A DNA stretch of 64,000 nt, from the NCBI GenBank assembly GCA_029261035.1, contig JAJDCD010000025.1, positions 66,926-130,925 of the forward strand. Reading direction: 5' to 3'. The translations under genes and the position numbers were made by a program. The DNA comes from Candidatus Omnitrophota bacterium (lineage in GTDB: Bacteria > Omnitrophota > Omnitrophia > Omnitrophales > JACROU01). Below, piece by piece: positions 11,996 through 60,800 of the stretch (position 1 is the first letter of the stretch; each line of letters starts with the position of its first letter). The notes beneath the pieces are model-generated. The model did not search any database. It was not told where the DNA came from and worked only from the letters and a program-made list of their open reading frames with translations.

Positions 11996-12901
11996 TTAAG
12001 CCCTAGGATGCGCTTGTTCGTACGATTCTTTTAAGCGCTTGGTGGACACGTGTGTGTATATCTGAGTCGTAGATAAATTTTGATGCCCTAAAAGCTCTTG
12101 AACACTTCTCAAGTCCGCACCTCGATCTAACATATGAGTTGCAAAAGAATGCCTTAACACATGAGGGGAGATTTCTTTTGCTAGAGAAATACGTCTAGCA
12201 TATTTAAGAACAATTCTACGAACACTTCTATCTGTAAGCCTCGTCTTTCCTTTATTAAGAAATAAAGCGCCTAATTCACTTTGATCGTCTCTTTTATTAA
12301 TATAGTCTTTCATTGCGTCCAAAGCTTTAGAGCCTACCGGCACCATACGTTCTTTCTTCCCTTTACCACGCACTTTGAGAACCTCGCCTAAAAAATCAAC
12401 GTCCTCAATATTGAGTCCCACCAGTTCACTAACACGAATCCCGCTAGAATATAATAACTCCAGAATCGACTTGTCTCTTTTTTCTATTTTAGTGTTCTTA
12501 GAGGGCGCCTCTAATAAATTGCTTATTTCTTGCTCTTCTAAATAGATAGGAAGTTTTTTATCTTTTTTAGGGGTAGCAATATTAACTGCAGGGTTCTCTT
12601 TTACAAGGTTTTCTCTGGTTAAGAATTTAAAAAAAGAACGAAGGCTCGCTAATTTTCTCGAAATCGTACTTTTGGAAAAATCTTTCTCTGATAAAAAGGC
12701 TAAATAACGTCTGATTTCCAAATAATCAATTTTTTCAATCTCTGTATCCTTGAAAAAATTAAAAAAACTTTGAAGATCAACAGAATAATTTGTTATGGTA
12801 TGACTAGAAGCATTTTTTTCTGCTTCTAAAAATGTCATAAACCGTGAAACCAAAGTTTGATGCCTATTTTTTTGTTTAACTGTTTTCTCTTTTATACTCA
12901 T
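11996..12901 (-). CDS. Tyrosine site-specific recombinase of the XerC/XerD family
   Basis: 301 aa. Catalytic-region motif HVLRHSFATHMLDRGADLRSVQELLGHQNLSTTQIYTHV. Confidence 0.7.
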   Translation of the reverse strand: MSIKEKTVKQKNRHQTLVSRFMTFLEAEKNASSHTITNYSVDLQSFFNFFKDTEIEKIDYLEIRRYLAFLSEKDFSKSTISRKLASLRSFFKFLTRENLVKENPAVNIATPKKDKKLPIYLEEQEISNLLEAPSKNTKIEKRDKSILELLYSSGIRVSELVGLNIEDVDFLGEVLKVRGKGKKERMVPVGSKALDAMKDYINKRDDQSELGALFLNKGKTRLTDRSVRRIVLKYARRISLAKEISPHVLRHSFATHMLDRGADLRSVQELLGHQNLSTTQIYTHVSTKRLKESYEQAHPRA

Positions 12902-28567: not shown

Positions 28568-31500
28568 TTATGCAGCTGTGAGAAGGGCTTGATACGCTTT
28601 AAAAGCTTGTTGGAGTTTACTGATTTTTTCTCTTAAGGAATTTTTAACAAAAGTAAAAACACCTCTCTTCTTATCTTTCCGAATATTGTCACGCACAGGT
28701 TTCATTAATGGATGAGACATATCCCCTTCGCTCATTCCCAACAAGAAAGCATGCGGCAATGCATAACGATTAAAATCTGCTAACTCAATACCTAAATCAC
28801 TTAACTCATTTGAAGAAGGGGTCTCTAACCTTTGGATCAACATAAGATCAATCGCACTTAATAATTCGGACGAACCTACAACGCTCAATCTACGATGAAC
28901 CATCGCCTGAGTTATATTTACACTCACTTCTTCAAAATACTGTTTTGCCAAATTTAAGATTTGAACAAAATCTTTTCCTGTTAAATAAGATTGAAAACTA
29001 TCGACTTCATCCCCTTTAAGTATAGGAATAACAAGAATTCGATCATTAATTAGCTCCCCATTTTTATCCTTCAAGAATTTTATTTTATTTTCAATCTGTT
29101 TGGCTTCTTTATTGGTTCCATAATAAAAAATTAAAGACACTGTTTTTGGATTATTCGTAAGTAATAGTGACTCCGACTCTACATCAAAGTAATCACTTGT
29201 TTTCATAACAACAGAAAAAGTCTCTGAATTCAAATCATAGGCATTAAACACACGACTTTGAGTTTCCGAAAGCACTCGATCAAAAGAAACAACCCTTGGA
29301 GATTCAGCATCCGCACTTTCAGCCGCAAAAGCTTTTGGATACCAAGAACTCATAACAAGTCTGTAAAGAGAGCTCTTCGCAGAAGAATAAAAGGACAAAG
29401 GTAAAATGCGTCCCGAAAATAACTGTGCCGTTTCTCTAACACGATCCACAACACCCAAACTTGCAGCAGAAACGTCTGCTAACTCAGGGTCATTGGAATA
29501 AATAAACCCTCCTCCAGAAGTACGATTTATAATATTTGCATGAAACACCGCTAAATCATGCTGATCTAACAAAGTATGAACTTGGTTAAAAAAAACAAAA
29601 TCTGATTTCCCAGACTCCAAATCACCTCTTGTTTTATACTTAAATGCCTGAACCCAAGCATTTACCTCTGGGTTATCAAGGTCCACTGTCACAAACTGCC
29701 AAGAGTCACTGACCCCTGGTAAAAAAGAAAATGCTTTTCTGATGTTGTTTCTCATGTCCTCAAAGTCTTTCTCCAAAGGAGTTACCGTTCTAAATCCTTC
29801 ATTAGGAATATATTTTTGAAACTTGTGCTTAAACCCATTCCACTGACCATAAACACCTCCATCTTTGTGTCTTAAGTCTATGAATGGGTAAATAATCTCC
29901 CCTCTTTTAAATGCTTCTAACACACGAGTGTCTCTATCTAAAATATTAAAATCTAAAGGAATCTCTTCTAAAGACACCCCCTCCTTTTGATACGCAGTCA
30001 TCATCAAAATTAAAATACTTAAAGGTTCTTCAAATACACCTGGACCTATTAAATCGATGGTTATTTTTTTATTTTGTTCATCGCTTTCCTTTTTCTTTCT
30101 AATCAACTCTCTTAACTTTAAATAAAAACTTTCATACTGTTTATGAGTCCTAAAAAACAACCCATACCGACCCGTTCCTTCATAATCCAAAGGAAGGGTA
30201 ACATCACTTTCTGGCTGAACCCAATACAAACTAAATTTTCCAAATTCTCTTTTATACTGGTCCATATCCTTAATTCCATTCAAATACATAAAGTACTCTC
30301 TAAAATCATCGTACCCACTAGCACGTGCAAAGCCTGACAAAGCCTTCAAAAAACTCTCTGAAAAGATGCGTCCCATATCTAATTGATGTATAAATGTTGC
30401 TCTAAAAGCTAAACTAGAAAGCATATCCGAAATCAAAACTCCATCCACACTCCCTATTCTTTTCACTAGACTCTTAGACACTTGTATTTCTCCTGTTTTA
30501 AAATCCGTTTGCTGCTGTCCCAGACTAGAAGCTCTCGAACGAGCAGCATCCATCACATCAACAACATCTTTAATTGTTTCTTTTGTATGATATGGAAGCA
30601 TAGACATCTTTACAGAATATGTTGGATCATCCTGAATTTTTAATAAATAATCATGCGGAGTCATTAAAATTAACTCTGAGTAACGAGCCATTGCAATTTT
30701 TCTGCTTTGCTCAGCAAATATTCGGACCATTCTGTCTTCAGTATATTCAGAGACCTGCTGTAAAAAATTAATTTGTTCTTTTAAGTAATCAACAAGCATA
30801 ATTAAATTCCACAAAAAAGAAGGTGTTGTTCCAGACTCACCCCAAAGCTCCCACAAATCACTATAGGGACTATCCAGTATTTCTATAAACTTATTTTTCT
30901 CAAGCAAGTCTCTAAAAGCACGTCTAGATTCAACAGAATTAACCGCTTTAATAATTCCCGCAGATGTAAATCCTGCTTTAAATAGCACTTCTTGTTTCCT
31001 CTCCAAAATTTCTCTTCTATCTTCTTCCAAATCATTATTCAAAATATTACTATTTCTATCGTACGCATCATGAGCTCTTTCCGACAATGTAGCAACAAAA
31101 TCTGTTGGAATATCAACATAAAGCAAACTTGTAACTCTAGGTAACCAACCCATTCTAACCTTTGCTTCAAAGTATTCCTCAGCAAAAAAACTTTTCCACA
31201 AAAATTGATACACCCCTTTTAAGTCGTTTACATTTAAAAGCTCTTGCTCCTTCTCTTTATTCCACCCACTATGATTCAATAATCCTTGAACCAAGCCTTC
31301 TACAAAGAACTCAAATCCATCATATTTCTCAAAATGATGCAAACTATCAACAGCAGAAACCGAAGATAATAAAGCGTCACTCACTTTCAGTTCTTTGCGC
31401 CTAGCACTTGTGAAAGGGTATTCATAAAGCATTCTAGAAGCAAAAAAGTCTGTCAAAACAAATCGTTGTCCTTGATTTATAGTTATTAATTTTTCTGGGT

Positions 31501-34500
31501 TTGTTAAGGGAATACGTCCTTGAACAAATTGATATGCCAATGCCTTTCCATAACCATAAGCAGCTTGTTGCACCCATGACTTCTCATCCTTTTTTTCTAT
31601 TAATTCTCCTTCATGAGTTGCTCGAATGGAACCTGGGCTCAACCTTAAAAGATACCCTTGTTTATTCGTTTTGTGTTCAAATTGAATACTAGCAATTACC
31701 CTAACAAGAGTCTCTTTTTCATACCCTTCTAAAGTAAAAGTCCCATATTGTTGCAAAGCATCAAATTCTCTTTTAGCCTCTCCAGCCGTCAGTCCTCCTC
31801 GAATACCTCTAAAGGAATCTTCGTAATCATAACCGCCTTCTGGAGTCCCAACCCCTTTTAATTCAAGAAAAAACTCTTGGCCATTCAACGAAAAAATCAA
31901 AGGCATTCCATTCTTTAAAACAATTCCTGTCCTCCCACCTGCACGCGTACCAATTTCAGGAGGAGTTACAGACATCAACACACTATAATCTTCCCCAATA
32001 TCTTCAGAGCTCGTAACAAGAACAGCCCCTGATAAAAAGTATTCTTTTAAGTCCTCCGGAACCATTTCCCAATCTACGGATGTTTCCATACTAACTTCAT
32101 CCATCAGAGTAAATGCGAGAGGTATTTCTTCCACAGATCTCAAATCTGTCCATTGAGCCTTAAAAGTCGCTGAGTCAGCATTTACAACATTTCTAAACTC
32201 TCTCCCTTTAGAATACACTGGTTGTATTTTTCCATCTCCATCTCTTGATAACCCAACAAGAAGATCGCCTTCCTGTCTAGCACTTTCAAACCTCTCTCTA
32301 ACCTCAGAATCTTCTACACTTTCAAGCTCGCTCAACTTCTCAGGCTCTGGCCAAAAATCGATTTTCTCACCACTATTTCGCTGCCAAATAACAAGCCCTT
32401 TCTGTAGAAGCTTACTTCCAAAATCAGAAAAAAACCTCAAGCCCCCCTCAAGCTTTTGGTAAGCTTTTGTAGGAGAACCATAAAGCTCTCTCAACATATC
32501 AAGCGTATGAACCCTTCCTTGGAGTTTGGATTCTTTGCTAAAATATTCCGACATAGTTTCGAAGTGAATCTTAGCAAAACTAATGTTAGGCCTATTAAAA
32601 GCTCCTATAAGATCTTCTATATGTCTATACGTATCTTTATGCCATTTCTTAATTCTTTGCTTTAACCTACTACGTAAAGACCAATAATCATTTTGAGGCT
32701 GCACTTCTGAAACAATTAAAACAGGATTATTAGACGCATCCCTCGATACCACGACATGCATCCAACCAATAAGACCTGGTCCCTCTGGAAAATTTTTCAA
32801 ATCCACCTCTCCCAAAACACCTCTAACCTCCTCTAAATCTTTTGTGTATTTAGTACCCTTTGAATCAACCAAAACATACACAACCAACGTTGGCTCATAA
32901 CTTTCATTAAAGAATGGGAGACGATCAATGCTTGCAGACAACTTGTATTTACCTAACTTTGAACTTTTATTAATACTCTCTTTAACTCTCTCTAAAAACC
33001 TCCAGTTCTCCAAGTAAATTGCTAAATTTCTACTTTGATCTGAATTCTCATTATTCAAACCAAGAGAAGATGCATCTACCTTACTCAACACTTTCTCTCG
33101 ACTTGCTACAACAGGAAGGTCGCCATCAGTTATTGAAGCCTGATAACTTTGATAAATCTCTTCAAAATAACTGCTATTAGAAAATAACTCAAAAACATCT
33201 TTCGATAATTTTGGATCAGAAAAAGAAAAATCAAAACCTAGCAAAACAACATTAATTAATTGCTGCACCCTTTCATCAGACAATCCTAAATGAGATAAAT
33301 TATTACTCATAGAGTCCCTTAAATAACCAGCAAACTGATTAGCAACATCAATATAAAATTGAACTTTTCCTTGATAATCAATTAAATAAAACTGTAATTC
33401 TCCCTTATGATCATCAACAACCACCTCCGCATTAGGCCATCCTCCCACCTTTTGATAGAAAGAACCTATAACCTTCCCAAACTGATAAAAGGCATTATCA
33501 AGAAAACCTTCATCCCCTAACCTTTCTCTGTTAACTAAAAGCCATTCATCAAAACTAATTCCAGGAGTATAGTCTTTGATATAAACTCTAATTGGATCTT
33601 CCTTATCAAATCCAATCTGAACAAATTGAAGAGGGCGAGTTAAGTAAGGCGTCTTTTCATAATCTTTCATACTTTCTTGGTATTCCATATACGTATGAGA
33701 ATCCGTAACAGCCCCATCCACACGATACATAAACTTGTCTGTAGCTGCCGTTAGATAAAAAACTTCATCTGGGCTTCTTAGCACAATAAGGTCCACCTTC
33801 TTATTGGACCCTTTAGCCTTACTTAAATCTATGAGCTCAATATCAAATTCGGAAAGTGGCTTGTCTGAACCTCTAAGTTCAAGAACATTTTCAAGTGTTC
33901 TTAATCCAGTTTTCTTATCCTTTACCAATAAAGCAGCCAAGATGCTTAAATGTGTGTCATGAATACCCTCTAACTCCTTATGAGAATCATAAACTTTAGT
34001 TTTAGCCAATATCTTTTCAACCTCTTCATCAAATTCAACCCGTTTAAAACGAAAGAATCTTCTCGTGCTCTCCTTAACTGATTCTTTAAATACAAGAGTC
34101 TCTTTTAATTGTTCAACACCCAATGATTGAGCCTCTGAAATCAAAGAGTCTTCCTGAGTAACCACACCTTCCTTTTCTTCTATAGACATAATCTGACTAA
34201 AGAAGTCTTTAACCACCCTTTCCATTTCGTTCTGTAACGCTAAATTATTTTGACTGTAGTGCTTATGCTGTGTTCCTTTCTGTAAAGTCACTACGTTTGA
34301 CCCTGAATCAGACCGCACTTCTGGATCAATGATAAAACGATGAGATACATTCTTCAAACCAGAGAAGGCCAAAACAAGATCCAGCTCTTTAGCAGAAGGA
34401 TCCACTGAAAAATAAACAGAACCCACCCCACTTGGAAGGCCCTTCACTTTTAAAGAAACATGCCAATCATAACCTCTCTCTAAATCAAAAAGCTTAGGAC

Positions 34501-37500
34501 CTTCATGTTCGATTTCTTCTGGTAGATTTTCTTTTTTGAACAGATCTTTAAACCTTTGAATTAAAGGAGTTGGATCAATAGGATAAATAGATGAGAAAAA
34601 GATAGCATCCGAAGCCTCTTCTGCTTCAGACAAATCTAACTCTAAATTAATTAAAGTAACTTCTTCATCCAAAGCAGGAAAGGAAATACGTCTGCTGTCC
34701 TTATCAAAAGATAATATGGGTTTAAAGGTCTTCAGAGAATCAAAAAGTCTCGCGCTCTGAGAAGGATAAATCGGCTCTTCTGATTCATATAAAACATAAT
34801 ACGTATCATCCACTAATACATAAGGGTCTAAATTTTCGGAGGTCCATATACGAGAAACATTCCCTACGTAGGCTTTACCATCAGACTGTTCTCTTAAAAA
34901 ACGATTTAACTCATATTCAAACAACAGTTCTTCAGTGCTAACATCGTCTCTTTTCATTAAAACATACTGCTTCCCATCAACATCCTCAAAACTCCAATAA
35001 ACATCGCTCAGTTTTTTTACCTGGACAAAACCTTCAATTCCAAATAAAGGCTCCACTCTCTGAATAAACTCCCCTTCAACACCTAAACTTCGGGCGGTGA
35101 AAAATTCTAAAACATCTCTATTGGGGTGCTTATTTTTAAATTCGTTACGACCTCTAAAGTTAACTCCTGTTCCAGTTAAATCAACCACCTCTAACTTTAC
35201 TAAGTTAAGTAAAGCTTCTAAGTTTCGATTCTTCACATCTCTTATTCTAGCCAAATACAGTTCCTTCAAATTAGTTAACTTGCTAATTATCTCTAAATCA
35301 CTTCCTTTTATTTGAGTCCTAGTTAGATTCAGCACTTCTAAATTTCTTAGAGCTTCTAACTGTTTTAACCCAGTTCCAGTTACCCTAGTTCCACTTAGAC
35401 GAAGTTCCTTCAGATTAGTTAATTGGATTATATCCTCAAGAGCACGATCTCCAACTTCAGAGCCTATCAAAGAGAGGGTTTTTAAATTTAGTAAATTCCT
35501 TAAATAGTTTAACCCTTCATCCATTACTTGGGTTCGATCCATTATAAGGCTTTCTAAATTCGTCAACTTTCTCAAATGTACTAACCCTTCACCCGTTACT
35601 TGCGTATCTTTTATATCAAGATTTTTCAAACTTATTAAACCACTCAAATGAGTCAGCTCTTCATTTCCAATGTCAAGTTCACTCAGATCAAGACTTCTCA
35701 AATTAGCATGTTCTTTTAAATGCCCAAGCTCTTCATTTCCAATGTCATAATAAATAAATAAAAGAAATCCTAAATTTTTTATCCCTCTTAATTTACTTAG
35801 TGAGACATTTTCAAATGGTAAGAAACCAAGTTTGATATTTAGCATTAAAGTATCTTCTTCAAAACCTACAGCTTCTCTAAATTCACCTTGTTCATATACA
35901 GAAGGATTATTCAAATCATCTAAACGACCTTTTATATCCTCTCTCACCCGTGCTTTATATTCTTCTATCACCTGTTGACCTTTTTTCGTTTCTCTTATTC
36001 GTCGTATAGCTTGTTTATGCTGCTCATGATAACTATCTGGAAAAAGGATACCTTGAGCCCACCCTCCTTCCAACACTCTCATCACTTCATCTTCTCTTCC
36101 AAGTCCTCCCAGCCTATGAAGAACCATCCCTCTCAACCCAAAATTTTCTGGGTATTCGTGCAACGCTCTCATCATTTCATTTAATCCCATATCAGGGCCT
36201 ATACCAAGGCTTTGCGCTTCTGTACTTTTAGGCTCATCTTCATCATCTGTTTCAACCCAAGAGATATTTCTATAATTTACCTCTACATCTCTTCTTGCAA
36301 GATAAATTCCTCCCGCTCCTGTCCCGACAGCAACAAGCAATAAGAGTGCGGGAATAGCTATAGGCATAGAGAATAAGAAAGAAAACAAACCTAAGGTAAA
36401 CATGTTGATTCCTAAAAAGACAATTCTTTCTCCTCGAGTAGAGCCTGGGGTCAAAGTGCTTTGTGGAAAATCAAAATCTTGAACATCCTCATCTCCTAAA
36501 CTAGCTCCCACAACAGCTCTTCGATCTCTTTCTCTATCATCAAGAATGCTTCTTTCTTCAAAAGACACATCTGACATTTCGCTTCTCAACAAATCCTGAT
36601 AATTACTCACCTGATCGAACAAAAACCAATTACGTTCTGTTGGCTTTAATCTTAATTGTTGTTCAGCTTGAGCAGCTCGATATTCCTCAAGCAATTCATC
36701 GTACTCCAACAACTCACTCTCATCTCCTTCGTAACGAAGTAATGCTGCTTGAAACATTTCGAGCAAAAGTCCTAATTTCAAGTCTAAATGCCTCAATTGC
36801 TCAATTTGATCAAAAACTTCTTTTCCCTTTTGCACAAAAAAGTTTTCTTCAAAAATATATCCACGAAGAACTTCATAAGTTGTTTTTTTCTTTTTTATTT
36901 GAATAGGTTGCCCATCTACATCTCGTGATGCTGTAGCCACTGGCATAAGCATTCTTCTTTCTTCAGACCAAACACCCGAATTGATTTCGCGAGACATTGC
37001 CCAAATAGCTGCAGTCCATAGAAAAGGAATCAAAGTCATCAGGATACTAAAAATAGAAAAAATAGTTGCGTTTTGAATTGCCGCATCCGGGCCAGGGCCA
37101 ACAATAAATGAATGAATACCTATAGGAAGCAAAGAAAATGGCATATATTGAAATAAAAACTTCGTGAAAAAATCTTGAAAAAGTACAATTCGGTTCGCAT
37201 GTCGTTCAGGGTTTTGAACAGCAGACACAAAAGAGTATAATTGAGAAGACATGGCACTATAAGCATCCCCTGCACTTCCTCCATAGGCTCCGTGCCAAGC
37301 AAAGATTTCATCCGCCTCTTTTCTGTAAGATTTTCCTAAAGCACGAATATCTTTTATGACTTGTTTTACAGCTTCATTCCGATCAGAAGAAAGGTTCGGA
37401 TTAGAAAAAATATTCGCCACTTCACTTACTGCCACTGAGCGTTTTTGTATCGACCTCATGGATGGAAGCAGCATAATAAGTGCTGTTGCAAATACATTCC

Positions 37501-40500
37501 TATGGGGAGGCGGAATATTCGTATTAATAGCAGCATCCCTCAGAATAAGCACCGCTTTTTTGCGGTTGCCAATGTAGCCCTCCCGTCTCATCAGTGCAAC
37601 AATAACTTCCGCAGCCTGCTGCACCTGTCCTTCTGTATATAACCGCCATGCATCATCAAATTCTAAAGCAGGTTCTTGAGATCGCAATTCTTCTTTCCCC
37701 AAACTCGCTCCTTCAATTTGACGATCATCTTTTTTCTTCTTTTTCTTAAGCTTTATACTTAGCTTTTCTGGAGTTTCTGATATGTCTGGGGTTGTTGAGA
37801 TGGAAAAACCCAAACTTGAAAATCGAATAGAAAGCTGATCTTTATAACTCTCTATTTGAGCTTGCATCCTTGGGCTCTCAGTTTGAAACTCATCTAGAAA
37901 CTCATGAAATCCCTGTACATCTTGAATAATTCGATTTTTTAAATTAAGATTATCGAAATCATCTGCATATTTAAAAATAAGGGATGCAATTTCATTTAGT
38001 AAAATTAACCTTGAGTCTAAACTGTCCAGATATTCAAATTGACTCAATAAATATTTGCGTGACTGTTTATCGTTAAATAAAGATTTTTCTGATTCCCATA
38101 TCAACCTTCTAACATGGCTTACAATGTCACGATCAGCTAATTTGTTTTGATCAAAGAGCTCCTCACGAAGCTCTCTTCTTTCTCTTATTTTATTGAATAC
38201 TTTTTTAAGAGTCCCAACAATGACAATAAGAGAAACAAAAGATATCAATACATTGATATTAAAATGAGATGTGTAAAATCGATGAGGATTAACGTCGAAA
38301 AAAGAATGGTAAATGCTAACTAAAGGAATAATAGCAATCACCCAAGCAAAACTCGCCACTAATGCAAGACCTTCTATTTCATTAAAATCCCTATTTCTAT
38401 AAACTGTCAAAGGATCTTCTATTAAATGCTCTGTCTCAAAGATGAAATCGGATGTAAGATAATACTTTTGCTTATCATCTTCTTTTCTAATTGAGTAATT
38501 AAAACGATCTGTATTCTCCTGCATCAAATAAGTCCTCAATAAACGCTTCGCATCTAACCCATATTCTGAATTTGTTAAAATTTCAGCATACTGATCAATT
38601 TCTTCTCTCGATTGAGAAATTACGCCTTTCATCCCTTCTGTTGCTAAAATAAGCTCAACATAATAACGAGCTACACTTCTTCTCTTCTTTCTGTCTTTAT
38701 AGTAATACAGATGATGACTGTGCAAATATTCAATTATTTCTCTTTGATAAATATTTTCTGCTGGCAATGGCCTATATTCCAAAAGCAAATCCAAAGCTTC
38801 TCCATGACGTTGTGCTTCTCTTAAAGACCGGTGTCTAACAGCCAATTTATTTGCTTCATCATCTGTTAAATCCACACTAACTCTTTCTTTTGGATCAGAT
38901 CTGTCTGAATAATCAAACGGAAATTCATCTTTGGAAAACTGCTTACCCAAACTCGCACCTTCTAGCTGACGGTCATCTCTTACTTTTCCAGTTTTAGAAT
39001 CTTCTGCAATTGGAGGGGCGGAAATATCTCTTTGAATATCTGGAAATGGAATATCAGGAAATTGTTGAATTAAGAATTCCCGCAGGTTTTTAGATTGGTC
39101 TTTGATGGGCTCCGACACGGAACTTATTTCTGTTAAAAATTGATAAAAGGCTACAATTTCATTATTGAGCCACTCTACCAACAATGGGTTTTCTTTTTCT
39201 TCCGAATATTTAATGACGGCTGCTGCTAATTCATTCAGCAAATAAATTTGAGCATCCGTGGTTCTCAGTTTTTCAAATTGAAGTTTAATGTATTGACGAT
39301 GTTTTTCATCATTAAAGAAATAGCTGTCTGTTGTCCATAACTTCTTATTAACTGCCTTAACAATTTCTTGATCACTCTCACCTAAAGATTCAAAAAGAAT
39401 TTGGTTCTGAAGTTCTAGATAATTAAGATCTTTTCCTCTGTTTTTATCCAACATCATTCTAAAAATAGCAATTAAAGATATGATTGGAATTAAAATGGCA
39501 ACTCCTCCAAGAACATAATCCGATATCTGAGAAGCCTCTAGCAAAACACGAGTGCCTAAGGTAATAAAAATTGCTGGCATTGGAACAAGTATCCAATTTT
39601 GTTTTCTGAAAATTACATTAAAAATTGAAGGGTTTCCAATTTCTTCCAAGTAAGCTTGAGGATCTAAAATCATTCTAGAAGCATGTTCTGCATCTCGTGC
39701 TGTTTTATAATAAGGCCCAGCAGGTCCTGAACCATATTGACCACCACCCCACTCAACATACTCCTTATACTTTTGGGCGCCTTGCTCATTTAGTTCTTTT
39801 GAAAGCTGTTTCAATAGATTTGAAGCTGTTTCCGCTGAAACAGCAGACGAGATTAGATCAACCATTTTGTCTTGAAGGTCCCAATCATCAAATTTAGATT
39901 CTACACCTGGCAACAATTGAATAAAAAACTTAGCTGCTTTTCTTCGAATTTGCACAGGTTGTGTTTGATCAAACAGCAATGGATAAACTAAATCAAAACT
40001 TTGTTTTCGATATTCATCATTATCGGGTAATATTCCTGGAGAACGCGCTAATAGAATATGAATCATCTTTTCATAAAAACCCAATTGAAATAAACCCTTA
40101 GCTTGAGTCAATCGATTTCTAGCATCTTCGATACCTGCTACGGATAACCTTTCATCAAAACCAAACTGCCTTTCAGTAAGTGGCGAGTTTCCCATAATAG
40201 AGCGTCGACGAGACACTTCCTCTCCAGCCGCACCAGGATCAAAATCACGCCATTTAAGCCACATCTGCTCTGTATCTACAACTGTCAAATCCAAAGGCTC
40301 TGGATGCTTTTCATAAATCTGTCTAATTTCTTCTCGAGATACTGGAGTCTGGTAAAAACTAACATGCAATAAATTCTCCATACCTTCAATCAAACTAATG
40401 TCTACCGACTCTAAACCATCTAGATTTAAATCAATCTCTTCTTTCCATTCATTCAGAATAACTCTCTTATCCCACTCCTCTTCTAGTCCATTGACTCTTA

Positions 40501-42574
40501 AAATTTCTCTTACCCTCTCTTTATCTTTTTCATAAGATCCTAATGATTGGGCCAAAACAGCTTCTTCGCTCAACGGTTGGGTTTGGTTTTTGTTTACAAC
40601 AAAGGTAGGGCGAATAATCACAGCTTCTTGGATAGGGATTAGAATAGACTGATTTGTCAGTCCCAAGCTTATCTCTACACCTTTTTTATCAGAAGAATCT
40701 TCCAAACCTGTTTGATAATTCACAGTCAAATCTGCTTGTTTAAAAAGAACATTGGATTCCAAATAGCGACTTATATTTTGAACTAAAACTTCTGTATTGT
40801 TTCTTAAATTTGGATTTAAAGATAATTCGCGCTCAATCAGAATATTTAAAAGATCAATCACAGCATCAACAAGCATTTCCACTTGCCTTTTTTCATCTCC
40901 TCCTAAAAGTTGAATTTGTTTCAGATCCCCTACCATCCCAAGCACTTTTTGAATTTGGGAGGTATCAAAAATAGTTTTACTCATTCCCATAACAGACTGG
41001 TGATACTTCTCGTGACCAAACTCCGTTTGGATTTGAGGCTGAACTCCAACATAAGATATGTTTTTATCCTTAATCAATTCTGCTAATCCTTCGGAATGAA
41101 AACCTCCCGTAATTAAGATGGCTTTTTCTTGTTTCATTTGTTTCATTTGTTTTTGAAGTTGCTCAAATAAAGCTTTATTACGTTCTTCGGCTAATCGGTA
41201 GAACTCGATAGCATTCTTATAGACAGGTTTAAATGTTTTTTGATTTTCTAAAAGAGTTCCCAAATCTCTTTCTTCTTGGTTTGAGAGTTGCAGAAGACGA
41301 TCCGTCAACTTACGCACATCTCCATTCAAACCTTTCCAATCAGAGTATGACAATTCAAAAGCAATCAATTTCTTAAATAAATTCAAATCCTCACTCAGCT
41401 TAATTAAAATCTGTTCATTTTCGTTCTTAGATAAAAATTCATATAAATTTCTACTTAATTGGTTCATTTCATTAAAAAACTCAGGACCTGTAATTTCGCT
41501 CTGAAGAATGAAGTGTTCTGAAAACTTTCTTAAATTTTTATACGCTGAAAGATCTATTTGAGCCTGCAAACTTGCTTCATAAATAAACTGAAAGAATTCT
41601 CGGGGAGCTTTTCCTGTCGTTTCGTAAAGTCGTGTCACCAAAGATTGGTTGATCTGATTTCGTTTTGTAATGGACGTTAGCCCTCGAATCAGATGCTGCT
41701 TATCCCGCTCATCAAAAACTCGTTCTCTCATCAGATGAATTAGTTGTGTTACTTCCTTCTGGAGACCCTCATCATCTAACTCTCGTTCTCTATCTTGAAC
41801 ACGAAGCATTCGACACAGAAAGGGATATTCTTTTTGGTTTAAGGGTGAGGTCAATTCTATATTAAGAAACTCTTCTGCTTTTTTTTCTAAATAAGAGATA
41901 AATTGAATGAGTTCGATTTGTTTATTCTGATATTGCAGAACTTTTTTATCAAATTTTAATAACTCGGGATTGTAAATACGCGATTTTAAAATATTCAGTT
42001 CTCGGTCAAAAGAATCAAAAAAGGGTTTTGCTTCTTCTTTGGTTTGAAGGCCTTTACGGAACAAAGTGTAATCCTCTCGGTAAAGGTCTGTTTTTTCAAC
42101 TCCTTCAAAAAAGATACCTTCATAATCTTTTAGCCCTTCAGATATTTCCAAAGCAAAAAGTTCTCCACCTGTAACCTCCCCCTTCTGAGCTAAGGCGTCT
42201 GCTACCTTCATATTAATATCTGCATAAGGAAAAAAGTGATAACTACGAGGATCTAACGAAGAGGACGCTCCTTCTAAACCAATTAACTGATAATCATGTT
42301 CACGGACTAAGTAATCTAAAATACTTTGGATATTTTTCTGTGCTTCATAGTTCGCATGAGCATCTTGAATATGAACAATCACTTTTTCGGAGTCTGCAGG
42401 AATAACTTCTTTGACTGTACCTAGTTGTTGAGGTAAGGAGAGTTGAAGAGCACTTTGAGACACACTTTTTACGTTTAGCGACAATAGCCCCTCTGGAACA
42501 GACCATGCCACTGTAGTTGTCGTAAAGCAAATAAGCACAAAACTAGCTATAAACCTCAAGTATTTAAAACCCAA
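28568..42574 (-). CDS. Giant secreted and membrane-associated multi-module protein of 4668 aa, function unknown. It has a signal peptide, a conserved N-terminal domain, at least 4 TM segments, an LRR block and nine A-x-S-L-G module boundaries.
   Basis: A single uninterrupted ORF. The TTG start has an AAGGGAG RBS 7 nt upstream. The signal peptide is MGFKYLRFIASFVLICFTTTTVAWS. The LRR block is at DNA ~35155-35800. Confidence 0.85.
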   Translation of the reverse strand: MGFKYLRFIASFVLICFTTTTVAWSVPEGLLSLNVKSVSQSALQLSLPQQLGTVKEVIPADSEKVIVHIQDAHANYEAQKNIQSILDYLVREHDYQLIGLEGASSSLDPRSYHFFPYADINMKVADALAQKGEVTGGELFALEISEGLKDYEGIFFEGVEKTDLYREDYTLFRKGLQTKEEAKPFFDSFDRELNILKSRIYNPELLKFDKKVLQYQNKQIELIQFISYLEKKAEEFLNIELTSPLNQKEYPFLCRMLRVQDRERELDDEGLQKEVTQLIHLMRERVFDERDKQHLIRGLTSITKRNQINQSLVTRLYETTGKAPREFFQFIYEASLQAQIDLSAYKNLRKFSEHFILQSEITGPEFFNEMNQLSRNLYEFLSKNENEQILIKLSEDLNLFKKLIAFELSYSDWKGLNGDVRKLTDRLLQLSNQEERDLGTLLENQKTFKPVYKNAIEFYRLAEERNKALFEQLQKQMKQMKQEKAILITGGFHSEGLAELIKDKNISYVGVQPQIQTEFGHEKYHQSVMGMSKTIFDTSQIQKVLGMVGDLKQIQLLGGDEKRQVEMLVDAVIDLLNILIERELSLNPNLRNNTEVLVQNISRYLESNVLFKQADLTVNYQTGLEDSSDKKGVEISLGLTNQSILIPIQEAVIIRPTFVVNKNQTQPLSEEAVLAQSLGSYEKDKERVREILRVNGLEEEWDKRVILNEWKEEIDLNLDGLESVDISLIEGMENLLHVSFYQTPVSREEIRQIYEKHPEPLDLTVVDTEQMWLKWRDFDPGAAGEEVSRRRSIMGNSPLTERQFGFDERLSVAGIEDARNRLTQAKGLFQLGFYEKMIHILLARSPGILPDNDEYRKQSFDLVYPLLFDQTQPVQIRRKAAKFFIQLLPGVESKFDDWDLQDKMVDLISSAVSAETASNLLKQLSKELNEQGAQKYKEYVEWGGGQYGSGPAGPYYKTARDAEHASRMILDPQAYLEEIGNPSIFNVIFRKQNWILVPMPAIFITLGTRVLLEASQISDYVLGGVAILIPIISLIAIFRMMLDKNRGKDLNYLELQNQILFESLGESDQEIVKAVNKKLWTTDSYFFNDEKHRQYIKLQFEKLRTTDAQIYLLNELAAAVIKYSEEKENPLLVEWLNNEIVAFYQFLTEISSVSEPIKDQSKNLREFLIQQFPDIPFPDIQRDISAPPIAEDSKTGKVRDDRQLEGASLGKQFSKDEFPFDYSDRSDPKERVSVDLTDDEANKLAVRHRSLREAQRHGEALDLLLEYRPLPAENIYQREIIEYLHSHHLYYYKDRKKRRSVARYYVELILATEGMKGVISQSREEIDQYAEILTNSEYGLDAKRLLRTYLMQENTDRFNYSIRKEDDKQKYYLTSDFIFETEHLIEDPLTVYRNRDFNEIEGLALVASFAWVIAIIPLVSIYHSFFDVNPHRFYTSHFNINVLISFVSLIVIVGTLKKVFNKIRERRELREELFDQNKLADRDIVSHVRRLIWESEKSLFNDKQSRKYLLSQFEYLDSLDSRLILLNEIASLIFKYADDFDNLNLKNRIIQDVQGFHEFLDEFQTESPRMQAQIESYKDQLSIRFSSLGFSISTTPDISETPEKLSIKLKKKKKKDDRQIEGASLGKEELRSQEPALEFDDAWRLYTEGQVQQAAEVIVALMRREGYIGNRKKAVLILRDAAINTNIPPPHRNVFATALIMLLPSMRSIQKRSVAVSEVANIFSNPNLSSDRNEAVKQVIKDIRALGKSYRKEADEIFAWHGAYGGSAGDAYSAMSSQLYSFVSAVQNPERHANRIVLFQDFFTKFLFQYMPFSLLPIGIHSFIVGPGPDAAIQNATIFSIFSILMTLIPFLWTAAIWAMSREINSGVWSEERRMLMPVATASRDVDGQPIQIKKKKTTYEVLRGYIFEENFFVQKGKEVFDQIEQLRHLDLKLGLLLEMFQAALLRYEGDESELLEYDELLEEYRAAQAEQQLRLKPTERNWFLFDQVSNYQDLLRSEMSDVSFEERSILDDRERDRRAVVGASLGDEDVQDFDFPQSTLTPGSTRGERIVFLGINMFTLGLFSFLFSMPIAIPALLLLVAVGTGAGGIYLARRDVEVNYRNISWVETDDEDEPKSTEAQSLGIGPDMGLNEMMRALHEYPENFGLRGMVLHRLGGLGREDEVMRVLEGGWAQGILFPDSYHEQHKQAIRRIRETKKGQQVIEEYKARVREDIKGRLDDLNNPSVYEQGEFREAVGFEEDTLMLNIKLGFLPFENVSLSKLRGIKNLGFLLFIYYDIGNEELGHLKEHANLRSLDLSELDIGNEELTHLSGLISLKNLDIKDTQVTGEGLVHLRKLTNLESLIMDRTQVMDEGLNYLRNLLNLKTLSLIGSEVGDRALEDIIQLTNLKELRLSGTRVTGTGLKQLEALRNLEVLNLTRTQIKGSDLEIISKLTNLKELYLARIRDVKNRNLEALLNLVKLEVVDLTGTGVNFRGRNEFKNKHPNRDVLEFFTARSLGVEGEFIQRVEPLFGIEGFVQVKKLSDVYWSFEDVDGKQYVLMKRDDVSTEELLFEYELNRFLREQSDGKAYVGNVSRIWTSENLDPYVLVDDTYYVLYESEEPIYPSQSARLFDSLKTFKPILSFDKDSRRISFPALDEEVTLINLELDLSEAEEASDAIFFSSIYPIDPTPLIQRFKDLFKKENLPEEIEHEGPKLFDLERGYDWHVSLKVKGLPSGVGSVYFSVDPSAKELDLVLAFSGLKNVSHRFIIDPEVRSDSGSNVVTLQKGTQHKHYSQNNLALQNEMERVVKDFFSQIMSIEEKEGVVTQEDSLISEAQSLGVEQLKETLVFKESVKESTRRFFRFKRVEFDEEVEKILAKTKVYDSHKELEGIHDTHLSILAALLVKDKKTGLRTLENVLELRGSDKPLSEFDIELIDLSKAKGSNKKVDLIVLRSPDEVFYLTAATDKFMYRVDGAVTDSHTYMEYQESMKDYEKTPYLTRPLQFVQIGFDKEDPIRVYIKDYTPGISFDEWLLVNRERLGDEGFLDNAFYQFGKVIGSFYQKVGGWPNAEVVVDDHKGELQFYLIDYQGKVQFYIDVANQFAGYLRDSMSNNLSHLGLSDERVQQLINVVLLGFDFSFSDPKLSKDVFELFSNSSYFEEIYQSYQASITDGDLPVVASREKVLSKVDASSLGLNNENSDQSRNLAIYLENWRFLERVKESINKSSKLGKYKLSASIDRLPFFNESYEPTLVVYVLVDSKGTKYTKDLEEVRGVLGEVDLKNFPEGPGLIGWMHVVVSRDASNNPVLIVSEVQPQNDYWSLRSRLKQRIKKWHKDTYRHIEDLIGAFNRPNISFAKIHFETMSEYFSKESKLQGRVHTLDMLRELYGSPTKAYQKLEGGLRFFSDFGSKLLQKGLVIWQRNSGEKIDFWPEPEKLSELESVEDSEVRERFESARQEGDLLVGLSRDGDGKIQPVYSKGREFRNVVNADSATFKAQWTDLRSVEEIPLAFTLMDEVSMETSVDWEMVPEDLKEYFLSGAVLVTSSEDIGEDYSVLMSVTPPEIGTRAGGRTGIVLKNGMPLIFSLNGQEFFLELKGVGTPEGGYDYEDSFRGIRGGLTAGEAKREFDALQQYGTFTLEGYEKETLVRVIASIQFEHKTNKQGYLLRLSPGSIRATHEGELIEKKDEKSWVQQAAYGYGKALAYQFVQGRIPLTNPEKLITINQGQRFVLTDFFASRMLYEYPFTSARRKELKVSDALLSSVSAVDSLHHFEKYDGFEFFVEGLVQGLLNHSGWNKEKEQELLNVNDLKGVYQFLWKSFFAEEYFEAKVRMGWLPRVTSLLYVDIPTDFVATLSERAHDAYDRNSNILNNDLEEDRREILERKQEVLFKAGFTSAGIIKAVNSVESRRAFRDLLEKNKFIEILDSPYSDLWELWGESGTTPSFLWNLIMLVDYLKEQINFLQQVSEYTEDRMVRIFAEQSRKIAMARYSELILMTPHDYLLKIQDDPTYSVKMSMLPYHTKETIKDVVDVMDAARSRASSLGQQQTDFKTGEIQVSKSLVKRIGSVDGVLISDMLSSLAFRATFIHQLDMGRIFSESFLKALSGFARASGYDDFREYFMYLNGIKDMDQYKREFGKFSLYWVQPESDVTLPLDYEGTGRYGLFFRTHKQYESFYLKLRELIRKKKESDEQNKKITIDLIGPGVFEEPLSILILMMTAYQKEGVSLEEIPLDFNILDRDTRVLEAFKRGEIIYPFIDLRHKDGGVYGQWNGFKHKFQKYIPNEGFRTVTPLEKDFEDMRNNIRKAFSFLPGVSDSWQFVTVDLDNPEVNAWVQAFKYKTRGDLESGKSDFVFFNQVHTLLDQHDLAVFHANIINRTSGGGFIYSNDPELADVSAASLGVVDRVRETAQLFSGRILPLSFYSSAKSSLYRLVMSSWYPKAFAAESADAESPRVVSFDRVLSETQSRVFNAYDLNSETFSVVMKTSDYFDVESESLLLTNNPKTVSLIFYYGTNKEAKQIENKIKFLKDKNGELINDRILVIPILKGDEVDSFQSYLTGKDFVQILNLAKQYFEEVSVNITQAMVHRRLSVVGSSELLSAIDLMLIQRLETPSSNELSDLGIELADFNRYALPHAFLLGMSEGDMSHPLMKPVRDNIRKDKKRGVFTFVKNSLREKISKLQQAFKAYQALLTAA

Positions 42575-57842: not shown

Positions 57843-57894
57843 AAAGGGGACAGGCAACTTTTCTATTTGTTAAAAAAAGTAGCCTGTCCCCTTT
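57843..57894 (-). terminator. 13-bp-stem hairpin immediately after the stop codon of giant gene 2
   Basis: The stem is aaaggggacaggc / gcctgtccccttt. The 27-nt loop contains a T-run. The hairpin overlaps the TAA at 57893-95. Confidence 0.35.
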
Positions 57895-60800
57895 ACGCTG
57901 CCGCCGCTACAAGCTCTTCAGCTTGGAACTGGGCATACACCTTATTTAATAGGGTTGTAATGAAACTGGCCCCAATAACCCATTCTTGACCATCAGGCTT
58001 GAAGCCGGCTTTGAGAAAAAGCTCCTCTCGAAGATCAGGGTAATTGGCTAATTGACGTAAGAGGGCTACGACCTGGACAGGATCTACTCCATTACCTGAC
58101 AACACTTCTAAGTCAAGACGTACTCGATCTCCGTTACTGAAAATCATCTGGAATACATTTTCGTTTGGACTCACCCAAATACCTGGCACCTCATATTTTC
58201 TTAATGAAGCTCTAAAAATTTCTGGATTCAAAAGCTCTCGACGCACATCTTTAAGTTTAAATTGTTTTCCAGGTAACTTATATAGAGCTTGAAGAAACTC
58301 CGGCTTACCTCTCCCCTCCCACGTTACCATCAACAAATCTTTTTTCTGCATCATGCTATTAAACTGAGATGCACTTCTTTCAGGGTCGTCCACATGACTT
58401 AAAATGATGTCATCCACGATCAGTGGAATGGGTTTATTGACTTCAGCTTCTAGCAACCCCGAAACTTCCAAAGATAAATATTGAGTCATCACCTCTAAGG
58501 ATTGATTAAAATCTATAATACGAGGATCTATGATTCGATCTACTGTATCTTCCAAAACTCCCATACGAATAAGTAAACTTTTAATAACCTCTAATGGAGA
58601 ATTTGGCATAAATAAGATTTGCCCTGCAAAGGCTTGAGCAACTTGAATCATTCCTTCAACCGAAACATCTCGCGCTTTAATTTGAGTTAAAGCAGGTTCT
58701 GCTCCCAAACTCTGCGCTTCAGCTCTGAGCCATTCTTCTTCCGGACCACTCAGTTCGTTCGCCTCATCTCCAGACTCTCGTTTCCATAATTCTGATAAAG
58801 TTTTTAACTGGTTTATAACTAAATCAAATCCTATACCTTCCTCTTTTTCTAGAATCATCAAAACCTCTTCCCCTCTTTTTGCTTTGATTAAATTTGCTCC
58901 ATATTTACCCTCAATAAACCATCTTAAAAAATTATTTTGAAAATCAACTTTTTTACTAATATCCTTCTCAGCTAACAACGTATCAAAAATAACAGAAAAA
59001 GCTTTTTCAATTCTTTCCAACTGTTTTAGTTTTTTATTTTCATCTAATACTGAAGGCATAGCTAAGAAAAGAAAAACCACTAAGGGTAAATAGCGCTTTT
59101 CTTCTTTGGCCAACCTTATAATTTGATCTCTCAAAAATGAGTCTGTTGCATATCCAAATTGAACCATCTCAGATAGATGGGAAAACACCTTAGGCAAAGG
59201 ATCATCCACATAAGGAACATAAAAACGATATATCAGAATTATAAACTCAATATTAAATATAGGGTGACGAACACCCATTTGTTCTTCTAATAAGATTTGA
59301 TTCCATATATGAATAGCTCCGGATAAACGTCTAGCTCTAACATTGGTCAACAACTCCTTTAAACCATCAAGTAATTCGTCCAAAGAAATGGTCACACGTC
59401 GTTTTGAAATGCTTGTAACCATTTCTTGTATTGCTTTGATAGAGTTTCTTGACAAATCTTTATCATGTTCAGCTATAAACTTCTGCCAAATTCTAAAAGT
59501 GTTAATATCATGAATGAATTTATACTCAAATAATACTTCTAAAAGCCTTAGTATTTCTTCCCCTCTAAAAAAGGTCTCAAATCCAAAAATTTTGGACTCA
59601 GCATCTGGTTTAAAAAATGCTCGTTGAAATTTTTCATCCAGTTTTGTTGACGGGCCTATTATCTGAGTCAAAGAAGAATTATCATACTTTTGTCTTATAT
59701 TCGAGTACGCCCCTAAACTCTGCGCATCCACTCTTAACCACTCAGGTTCCTCTCCTTCTGACTCAATACTTTCGAACGGCCCTTCTTTTCCCCAAACATC
59801 TGCTATTTGCCTTAGCTGTTCTAAAACTTTTTCCTCTCCAACAGCATCTTTTCTTCTTATAATCTCTAAAACCTCCTCCGTTCTAAACATTCCGTTAGAA
59901 CTTACTGTTAATCGTTCCCATACATCTAATCCTAATCTAGGCTCCTCCATACTCTCCATAAAAATCAAATATTCCATTAGAAAATTCGGATCTAATACTC
60001 GGCCACTCCTTTCCACCTGTTCAAGAAAACTACCAACAACTTCAAAAGAAGAAGAAATTGTAAAAATGTCATTCATTTCTACCACCTTACTGAGCCTTTC
60101 CCAGAGATCAGAATGGAGAACATCCTTATCTATCAATTCTTTTTTTATCAAAAAACCTAGGGTTCTTAACAGAGTAAAAGTACTTGTAAAAGAATCCTTG
60201 TTCAAATGAGCAAACCTAAATAATAAATTAATATCCAAAACTTGTTCATCAGCTCTCCCTGACTTCACAGCCACCCCCAACTCTACAAGCTGCTCAAAAC
60301 TGCCCATCTCCCGCAAATCATAATATTGAGCCATTATAATGAACAGTTCCTCATTCCATAATTTTTCTGGAATCCTCTCCTCTGCTATGCCGGTTTCCAT
60401 CCGTAACAAATCCTCTATAAGAGGTTGTATTTCCTTTGAATTCACCTGAACAAGCGCTTCCAAAAAATCTAAATTAAATCTTTCTATCCTTCGTCTTTTC
60501 TCTAGCAGGGAGTCTCCTAACTGTTCGATAGCTTGAAAAGACGTGATTCTATTATCCCTACTCCCTTTACTAACTATTTCAAAAATTCTTTCTATTTTTT
60601 CTAATTCACTTACATCTTTAAAAATTTCTGTTAAAACGATAAATGCCTCCATAGCCGCTTCTTCATCTTCAAGCACTTCAACTAACCCAGAAAAGTCCTG
60701 CTCAAACGCTTCCCACTCCATGTCCAGCCCCTCTAAAAGACCAGCCTCTTCATATCTATCACGAGCTCCTAAACTTTTTGCAGAAATGATGACGGGTGCC

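Follow-up and report, generated by a model that had tools for sequence, protein, structure and literature searches.

A lineage-specific junction motif between the modules of two giant Omnitrophota proteins

Junction sites in two giant proteins

The stretch of DNA analysed here (hereafter the window; 64,000 nucleotides of contig JAJDCD010000025.1 from a Candidatus Omnitrophota bacterium) is a piece of bacterial chromosome with ~37% G+C, whose large open reading frames (ORFs) all lie on the minus strand. Two of these encode giant proteins, here called giant 1 and giant 2, which are punctuated by the short motif A-x-S-L-G. This motif is a lineage-specific junction between protein modules, is under selection, and is specific to the family to which the giants belong. 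The family is defined by a shared N-terminal region, with >580 matches in species-representative genomes; the listed family records are nearly all from Omnitrophota, a phylum known for very large genes, with a few labelled as uncultured Planctomycetia.

28568..42574, minus strand: giant 1, 4668 amino acids, TTG start; signal peptide, N-terminal hydrolase-like domain, ten junction motifs, and C-terminal tail
57893..63853, minus strand: giant 2, 1986 amino acids, TTG start; four junction motifs
40940..42574, minus strand: N-terminal region of giant 1 (amino acids 1–545); signal peptide and TIKI/EreA/TraB-like domain, with a helical insert at amino acids 162–479
62219..63853, minus strand: N-terminal region of giant 2 (amino acids 1–545); same domain family, 28% identical to that of giant 1

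A public protein collection holds sequences identical to giant 1 (P0123) and giant 2 (P0223). Homology between the two giants, as judged by self-comparison and self-BLAST, is confined to the first ~520 amino acids (28% identity).

The motif in the form [A/G]-x-S-L-G occurs 14 times in the two giants, as against 0.32 occurrences expected (Poisson p = 1e-18). The tripeptide SLG alone occurs 17 times, with 3.05 expected, and none of 2000 shuffles reached this number (highest, 11). In the window's other 30 ORFs (12,512 amino acids), [A/G]-x-S-L-G was seen twice, with 0.72 expected. This is chance level, so the similar frequency in unrelated proteins that an earlier sequence-only reading of this DNA had named as speaking against a junction signal was not found.

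40538..40552, minus strand: A-Q-S-L-G, giant 1 amino acids 675–679; first site after the N-terminal domain
38945..38959, minus strand: G-A-S-L-G, giant 1 amino acids 1206–1210 (DDRQLEGASLGK); similar at the DNA level to the site at amino acids 1622–1626
37697..37711, minus strand: G-A-S-L-G, giant 1 amino acids 1622–1626 (DDRQIEGASLGK); similar in DNA to the site at amino acids 1206–1210
36494..36508, minus strand: G-A-S-L-G, giant 1 amino acids 2023–2027
36203..36217, minus strand: A-Q-S-L-G, giant 1 amino acids 2120–2124; brackets a 97-amino acid module together with the site at amino acids 2023–2027
35081..35095, minus strand: A-R-S-L-G, giant 1 amino acids 2494–2498; 22 amino acids past the end of the leucine-rich repeat (LRR) domain
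34118..34132, minus strand: A-Q-S-L-G, giant 1 amino acids 2815–2819
33059..33073, minus strand: A-S-S-L-G, giant 1 amino acids 3168–3172
30518..30532, minus strand: A-S-S-L-G, giant 1 amino acids 4015–4019
29453..29467, minus strand: A-A-S-L-G, giant 1 amino acids 4370–4374
62123..62137, minus strand: A-A-S-L-G, giant 2 amino acids 573–577; first site after the N-terminal domain
60767..60781, minus strand: A-K-S-L-G, giant 2 amino acids 1025–1029; the position of RAEVR in P0224 and RSEVR in P0225
59711..59725, minus strand: A-Q-S-L-G, giant 2 amino acids 1377–1381; similar in DNA to the site at amino acids 1713–1717
58703..58717, minus strand: A-Q-S-L-G, giant 2 amino acids 1713–1717; similar in DNA to the site at amino acids 1377–1381

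All 13 of the sites that the sequence-only reading had listed are present within a few bases of where it had placed them (SLG starting at amino acids 1208, 1624, 2025, 2122, 2496, 2817, 3170, 4017, and 4372 of giant 1, and at 575, 1027, 1379, and 1715 of giant 2). A further canonical site had been overlooked (AQSLG, with SLG at amino acid 677 of giant 1), and three more SLG tripeptides (amino acids 636, 1063, and 1587) are non-canonical, having no A or G at position -2. Successive sites are separated by 531, 416, 401, 97, 374, 321, 353, 847, and 355 amino acids in giant 1, and by 452, 352, and 336 in giant 2. The regular spacing of 350–450 amino acids claimed earlier was thus somewhat overstated, the range being 97–847 with most intervals at 320–450, and only a rough periodicity stands. 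The flanks are hydrophilic on both sides of the sites (mean hydropathy about -1 to -1.5, against a background of -0.33), which describes them better than the acidic or DDR-rich stretch said to precede each one. A fuller form of the motif emerged from 35 pooled sites of the SLG type, namely V/S/A/I/T - polar - A/G - A/S/Q/K/R - S - L - G, with V/S/A/I/T at position -4 in 29 of the 35, A/G at -2 in 34, and A/S at -1 in 24.

Conservation at the sites is that of a peptide. The codon choice AGT-TTR-GGN, given earlier as 9 of 13, is found at 8 of these 13 sites and likewise at 8 of the 14 canonical ones, and what holds of this claim is a bias at serine. The motif serine is encoded by AGT at 9 of the 14 sites, against a background of 27% (p = 0.004), and is the only residue with a biased codon; TTR for leucine is ordinary usage (62%), and third positions vary. 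These variable third positions, with bias in the serine AGT codon only, indicate that selection acts on the peptide and not on the DNA. A DNA-level signal, such as a recombination site or an RNA structure, was rejected on the same grounds and for the lack of any extended repeat. The motif serine has an AGY codon at 10 of the 14 sites, as compared with 35% AGY usage in the giants. AGY and TCN serine codons cannot be interconverted in one step while keeping serine, and the AGY bias may come from common ancestry of sites or from the way in which new sites arise.

Unrelated modules and their membrane context

The segments between sites have no similarity to one another in self-comparison of both giants, except for the last 58 amino acids of two giant 2 modules. 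These two (amino acids 1030–1381 and 1382–1717; 58703–60766) are a diverged tandem duplication, visible only in these shared ends, which are 43% identical and finish EE(P)EWLR-x-[D/E]-A-Q-S-L-G. At the DNA level, only two pairs of sites are similar, 37695–37733 with 38943–38981 (82% identity over 39 nucleotides) and 58701–58742 with 59709–59750 (74% over 42 nucleotides).

It is improbable that the motif lacks a specific reader and is there passively, as part of the structure or of a linker (a helix cap or a turn, for example) or as a scar of duplication or fusion; this explanation is already largely refuted. The two locally duplicated pairs of sites, the shared ends of the two giant 2 modules, and the bias toward AGT, as expected if some sites share ancestry, speak for it. 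The other ten sites have no DNA or protein similarity beyond the motif, and their third codon positions vary. As the modules are non-homologous and only two pairs are similar in DNA, the duplication scar that had been offered as an alternative cannot account for the full set of sites.

Modules of giant 1 with recognizable relatives are the following:

35159..35701, minus strand: leucine-rich repeat domain, giant 1 amino acids 2292–2472; the sole module recognized by Pfam, with an internalin-like match in NCBIfam
33251..34048, minus strand: module core, giant 1 amino acids 2843–3108; homologous to two tandem modules of P0141 that are bounded by AEAR[S/A][L/M]G
30575..32323, minus strand: widespread uncharacterized domain, giant 1 amino acids ~3418–4000; ~100 relatives, many of 600–700 amino acids

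The widespread domain has ~100 representatives at E below 1e-3, and its conserved end, '..MLPY', lies ~20 amino acids ahead of the site at amino acid 4015. By eye only, this module looks kinase-like (HPENL..TDYSD), as does the P0141 relative of the 33251–34048 module (DMH.GNV..DHTD); neither of the two giant 1 modules has a sequence match in Pfam, NCBIfam, or the PDB. Among the module relatives, Pfam recognized no more than a GT4 fragment, with which P0225 starts, and a homolog search with giant 1 amino acids 2028–4668 returned LRR proteins only.

The giant 1 modules between the sites at amino acids 677, 1208, 1624, 2025, and 2122 each contain transmembrane-like stretches. A hairpin is clear in three of these four modules, while the third in order has one scored stretch only, and the 97-amino acid module (36203–36508, amino acids 2023–2124) is essentially a single transmembrane hairpin (amino acids 2051–2090). 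Similar hairpins come after the first motif in P0007 and P0009, relatives of 1140 amino acids. With helices paired in this way, no giant 1 site would be across the membrane from the exported N-terminal domain. Giant 2 has no transmembrane-like stretch beyond its signal peptide (the hydropathy scan did not score the signal peptide itself). All 14 sites lie in hydrophilic sequence, the closest transmembrane-like stretch being 26 amino acids away, and this at one site only.

Several kinds of processing signal were considered. The sites had been suggested to be sortase- or rhomboid-like recognition sites. A sortase, exosortase, or rhombosortase signal does not fit, in that the sites are internal, number 4–10 per protein, and are not followed by a transmembrane helix and basic tail, and the actual C-termini end in ..AA without a hydrophobic helix. 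A substrate of rhomboid or another intramembrane protease is likewise unsupported, with no site in or at the edge of a transmembrane helix. The residues at positions -4 and -2 mimic the -3/-1 rule of type I signal peptidase, though the eight residues upstream of the motif are hydrophilic and form no h-region. Autoproteolytic domains (intein/Hint, GPS, SEA, Ntn, and pyruvoyl) were set aside, as the surroundings of the sites are mutually unrelated and Pfam recognized no such domain.

Junctions in related proteins

An Omnitrophota genome from groundwater contains a syntenic ortholog of giant 1 (L001), the genes from aspartokinase to UvrB being arranged in the same order. Past the N-terminal domain, no similarity of L001 to giant 1 could be detected, and L001 has four sites of the same type (SRAA-SLG, AEGA-SLG, FQAS-SLG, and ASGA-SLG). 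The motif has thus persisted while the modules diverged beyond detection, which is not expected of a passive linker or scar. The L001 gene is broken: its first ORF stops at 12451 and continues from 12271 in another frame for >1336 amino acids, and the break is not at a motif. The gene may be a pseudogene or have a programmed frameshift, or the break may come from an error in the assembly.

A second family protein in the same genome (L003, over 2068 amino acids) has ten [G/S/A]-x-SLG sites spaced about 25–230 amino acids apart, mostly 120–230. Four SLG-type sites occur in a relative from a metagenome (L081), and the adjacent genes L148 and P0141 on another contig have EAASLG, AEAESLG, SAAQSLG, AEARSLG, and AEARAMG. 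A rough tree of N-terminal domains places the SLG-type proteins in two separate paralog pairs, giant 1 with L003 and giant 2 with L081. The motif type therefore tracks the organism and not the paralog, which favors one reader per genome; that distant paralogs within a genome share a motif type also argues against a passive linker or scar.

The valyl-tRNA synthetase (ValRS) encoded in the window (46490–49180) reads ..KMSKSLGNTIDP, with K at position -2 and hence no match to [A/G]-x-S-L-G. In its counterpart in the L001 genome, the KMSKS signature of class I tRNA synthetases is followed by LG, and the resulting KMSKSLG is a chance match to a relaxed pattern. The case illustrates that an isolated SLG in a protein outside the family is a coincidence.

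Most related giants are punctuated by a different motif, R-S-E-x-R. This occurs at 135 sites in 63,546 amino acids of 22 family proteins, as compared with 6 sites in 52,013 amino acids of neighboring ORFs (2.1 versus 0.12 per 1000 amino acids). Four of the six flanking sites are in two long neighbors, which may be further substrates. RSESR occurs nine times in L006, with 0.004 expected, and L038 has 14 RSExR sites; variants include RAEAR (L014), RPE.R (L031), and [K/R][S/T/P]E[L/M]R (P0140).

The RSExR motif is often directly followed by a hydrophobic, signal-anchor-like stretch (L006 amino acids 727, 895, 1838, and 2041; L040 amino acid 1220). A Tat-like NRRGFLKAG comes next after the motif at amino acid 2198 of L030, as though modules had retained export signals of their own. 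A third junction motif, unrelated to the other two, appears in L060 (amino acids 793–2169; genome JBAZKH01), in which RGDSATGEMP occurs about eight times (G.MP nine times, with 0.13 expected).

The hydrophobic stretches after RSExR motifs, the Tat-like case, and the hairpins of the four giant 1 modules (one per module, with a single scored stretch in the third) would be compatible with a co-translational or export signal. Such a signal could act through ribosome pausing, 2A-like separation of products, or marking of the next module for membrane insertion by the translocon. This is very improbable, given that most giant 1 sites and all giant 2 sites have no hydrophobic stretch nearby and that no extended DNA or RNA conservation is seen at the sites. 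We also know of no bacterial 2A-like mechanism.

The SLG and RSExR motifs occupy equivalent positions, as is seen in a module of giant 2.

60782..62074, minus strand: giant 2 module, amino acids ~594–1024; homologous to modules of P0224 and P0225 (27% identity, E 2e-52 and 5e-54)

The alignment of these modules extends to the very end of the giant 2 module, up to the junction motif. The aligned ends are '..TAPQEEVDGIVERLIDVAPVIISAK-SLG-ARD' in giant 2, '..TAPQDEIDSIIQSLTLPLEPISV-RAEVR-PES' in P0224, and '..TAPQAEIDSIIQNLRIAPEPASL-RSEVR-NKA' in P0225, or, in a shorter view, '..APVIISAK-SLG', '..LEPISV-RAEVR', and '..PEPASL-RSEVR'. A homologous module thus ends in the motif of its own lineage. 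This is the expected behavior of a recognition site and a reader that evolve together, and it is not expected of a structural element or a fusion scar; nor would a passive linker have one conserved motif replaced by another at an equivalent place. The suggestion that the sites are inter-module junctions is borne out by this equivalence, by their retention in the syntenic ortholog, and by their location just past recognizable domain ends. Equating the 'AEAR' of P0141 with the 'SEAR' of RSEAR was rejected on the strength of the alignment of giant 2 with P0225, which sets the serine of SLG opposite the serine of RSE.

Giant ORFs outside this family may also be punctuated. Homology of modules led to three further giant multi-enzyme proteins, each with a repeated junction-like peptide of its own. 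P0140 (3082 amino acids) has DRTEMR(PVTDVAGLHK..), P0189 (6578 amino acids) has RPIAGASGTGP..IGSDTN between methyltransferase-like modules, and P0209 (3883 amino acids) has SSSP[L/V]; no N-terminal domain signature is seen in P0189 or P0209.

In the window, the giants are surrounded by housekeeping genes, including lipopolysaccharide (LPS) core and lipid A genes, a XerC/D-type recombinase gene, and aro, ilv, and leu genes. Further neighbors encode prepilin peptidase, glycogen debranching enzyme, UvrB, ValRS, aspartokinase, homoserine dehydrogenase, and a Fic protein. The Fic/DOC family gene (56609–57214) is directly downstream of giant 2, and the XerC/D-type tyrosine recombinase gene (11996–12901) lies among the LPS genes; neither has a visible tie to the motif.

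Proposed processing of the giants and known systems

Family members fall into size classes of 480–600 amino acids (N-terminal domain only), about 1000–1140 amino acids, and 2000 to over 4000 amino acids (giants). An AlphaFold2 (AF2) model of the N-terminal domain (predicted local distance difference test [pLDDT] score, 82) has a TIKI/EreA/TraB/RRSP-like hydrolase fold, the core of which is split by a ~320-residue helical insert. This core is a parallel β-sheet flanked by helices, as in Bcr135/136, EreC, HopBA1, RRSP C2, and ChaN. H73, E101, R465, and H493 are invariant, and D71 is kept in at least 90% of 25 sequences (D-x-H...E...H). Active members of the superfamily have a constellation of two histidines and two glutamates (E3900, H3902, E3930, and H4030 in RRSP; H85 and E113 in Bcr135), and the 28-residue spacing of H73 and E101 is that of H85 and E113 in Bcr135 and of H3902 and E3930 in RRSP (PMC6254334). 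By sequence pattern, as distinct from residue-level superposition, the N-terminal domain appears to reproduce this catalytic constellation of two histidines and two acids.

The likeness to the TIKI/TraB-PrgY/erythromycin esterase/ChaN superfamily is confined to the N-terminal domain. The domain differs from the superfamily in its ~320-residue insert and in having no match to curated Pfam or NCBIfam models at E ≤ 0.01. Only faint Pfam matches were seen, to DUF5694 (best E 0.011) and DUF5682 (best E 0.11), each in 2 of 25 members, and a profile search of the PDB with the domain returned nothing relevant. The domain closes with GGFH, and the first junction site follows this by 52–332 amino acids in 28 of 28 RSExR-type proteins (median, 142) and 4 of 4 SLG-type proteins.

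28571..28675, minus strand: C-terminal tail element of giant 1 (last 35 amino acids, ...KLQQAFKAYQALLTAA-COOH); conserved in the family
57896..58000, minus strand: C-terminal tail element of giant 2 (...LLNKVYAQFQAEELVAAAA-COOH)

At the other end, the tail of long members consists of a short strand and an amphipathic helix, followed by hydrophobic-A-x-[S/A]-A-COOH. Among 44 complete long members, the last residue is alanine in 35, and position -2 is serine or alanine in 37; forms consisting of the N-terminal domain only end in charged residues (D, K, or E). No relative was found by phmmer with the last 294 amino acids of giant 1, and C-terminal conservation is limited to ~35 residues. The tail could serve in secretion, sorting, or docking of a protease. 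The natural C-termini, with alanine last and serine or alanine at -2, resemble the ends predicted from cleavage just before S-L-G.

We consider it an even prospect that the junctions are endoproteolytic processing sites and that the giant ORFs encode bacterial polyproteins; cleavage at the motif, the position of the scissile bond, and the enzyme responsible are what we infer. This reading draws on the placement of motifs at module ends, their accessible flanks, and the switching of motifs at homologous positions, as well as on a built-in hydrolase from a superfamily with site-specific endopeptidases and a C-terminus that resembles the upstream half of the motif. The giants have heterogeneous modules with a conserved short motif in exposed linkers, as is expected of self-processing polyproteins. 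The proteins have a common layout, in which a Sec signal peptide and a ~500-amino acid TIKI/EreA/TraB-like hydrolase domain are followed by the first junction motif. Then comes a chain of unrelated modules (LRR, kinase-like in appearance, and transmembrane hairpins; methyltransferase and glycosyltransferase in relatives), each ending in a motif, and a conserved tail ending in [S/A]-A. The polyprotein would be cut after export into separate module proteins, and the specificity of recognition would have drifted between lineages, to R-S-E-x-R in most, A-E-A-R-[S/A]-[L/M]-G in one, and A-x-S-L-G here.

The N-terminal hydrolase-like domain is a tentative candidate for the protease, in cis or in trans, and rather unlikely to be so. 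It is at least equally likely that each genome has one enzyme acting in trans, because paralogs with N-terminal domains only 28% identical use the same motif in one genome.

Several observations weigh against processing, or against the N-terminal domain as its agent. The superfamily contains endopeptidases (Tiki and RRSP) and also esterases and a haem-binding protein. Many members consist of the N-terminal domain only, and one clade of giants has this domain and no detectable junction motif; together these imply that the domain has a role independent of junctions. Conversely, P0141 has junction motifs and the C-terminal tail and no N-terminal domain. The resemblance between natural and predicted C-termini holds for the SLG type and not clearly for the RSExR type. 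No protease of this specificity is known. An AF2 model of a giant 2 module with its junctions, based on a three-sequence alignment, had a pLDDT of 34 and was unusable for the context of the motif.

The motif could instead be a short linear recognition peptide that is left uncleaved, serving in docking of a partner (a chaperone, secretion factor, or envelope-anchoring factor) or in modification of its serine, so that the giant would remain one chain with regularly spaced handles. We regard this as unlikely, though a good deal less so than a passive linker. Selection and lineage specificity fit any co-evolving recognition system, the serines of S-L-G and R-S-E align in giant 2 and P0225, the hydrophilic flanks are accessible, and the transmembrane hairpins between sites could keep one long chain on the membrane. 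Serine is not universal in the RSExR type, as the variants RAEVR, RPE.R, and RTEMR show, which counts against its modification. The strict placement at module ends, the position directly after the N-terminal domain, and the motif-like natural C-terminus are more typical of processing sites, and no candidate partner is known. Were the motif uncleaved, it would still mark a recognition system specific to these proteins.

To return to processing sites, a broader and unlikely form of this reading would make the giants part of a phylum-wide set of exported polyproteins. Their N-terminal TIKI-family hydrolase would be a maturation protease co-evolved with the junction peptide, and their tail, ..A-x-[S/A]-A, would mimic the new C-terminus left at each junction. 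Specificity would then have passed from R-S-E-x-R to A-E-A-R-S-L-G and on to A-x-S-L-G, and a single recognition step could suffice to process the chain one module at a time, the reader being, for instance, either the protease itself or a PDZ-type tail-specific protease. The junction motifs would in that case be the long-missing cleavage map for Omnitrophota giant proteins. A lineage-variable punctuating peptide predicts the positions of new termini, split points for structure prediction, and the residues that matter. If cleavage is confirmed, the giants would constitute a rare chromosomal bacterial polyprotein system with co-evolving sites, and the TIKI/Ere-like domain may have a new activity.

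Giant proteins of a different kind have been described in Omnitrophota ('Archaeovorins', dockerin-type), with >30,000 amino acids and C39 or S8 peptidase-like domains near the N-terminus; cleavage into smaller products by these domains was proposed, with no cleavage points known (West-Roberts et al. 2023, 10.1101/2023.11.21.568195). As in the present family, these are membrane-associated multi-enzyme proteins with many transmembrane segments; the present family differs in its size (1,000 to over 4,600 amino acids), its TIKI/Ere-like N-terminal domain, and its tail ending in alanine. The West-Roberts preprint describes no junction motif, a preprint of 2026 on complete Omnitrophota genomes says nothing of cleavage or of motifs, and a literature search for the motif strings returned nothing relevant.

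Motif-directed cutting in exposed regions into several functional fragments occurs in other large secreted or surface proteins of bacteria, namely the P97/P102 adhesins of Mycoplasma hyopneumoniae (S/T-X-F|X-D/E) and gingipain polyproteins. These belong to unrelated phyla and have other motifs and proteases, and their cleavage has been shown by proteomics, whereas that of the giants is proposed.

Viral polyproteins (picornavirus 3C Q|G, potyvirus NIa, and alphavirus nsP2) resemble the giants in having a long ORF, unrelated units, and a short lineage-specific junction peptide. In these viruses the junction peptide co-evolves with its protease, which for the giants is a proposal. The giants differ in being encoded by chromosomal genes among housekeeping genes and in having a signal peptide, so that any processing would be located in the envelope; no protease of the chymotrypsin-like or the papain-like kind was recognized in them.

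MARTX and large clostridial toxins, like the giants, are exported, giant, and modular, with heterogeneous enzymatic modules split by short exposed sites. A built-in cysteine protease of these toxins autoprocesses Leu-(Ala/Ser/Gly) sites between effector modules, whereas cutting of the giants is only proposed. The site in TcdB, ..GSL|GEDD, resembles GASLGDED in giant 1, and the MARTX effector RRSP has the superfamily fold of the giants' N-terminal domain. Searches of the giants with Pfam and NCBIfam, which recognized only the LRR, found no C80 cysteine protease domain, RTX or CROP repeats, or other MARTX parts. The candidate protease here is instead the N-terminal TIKI/Ere-like domain, and the motif is different and lineage-variable. 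As the giants come from an environmental bacterium, either free-living or predatory, activation by inositol hexakisphosphate (InsP6) is implausible. While none of the defining parts are common to them, the MARTX and clostridial toxins and the viral polyproteins are the systems nearest to the giants, and they have their logic in common.

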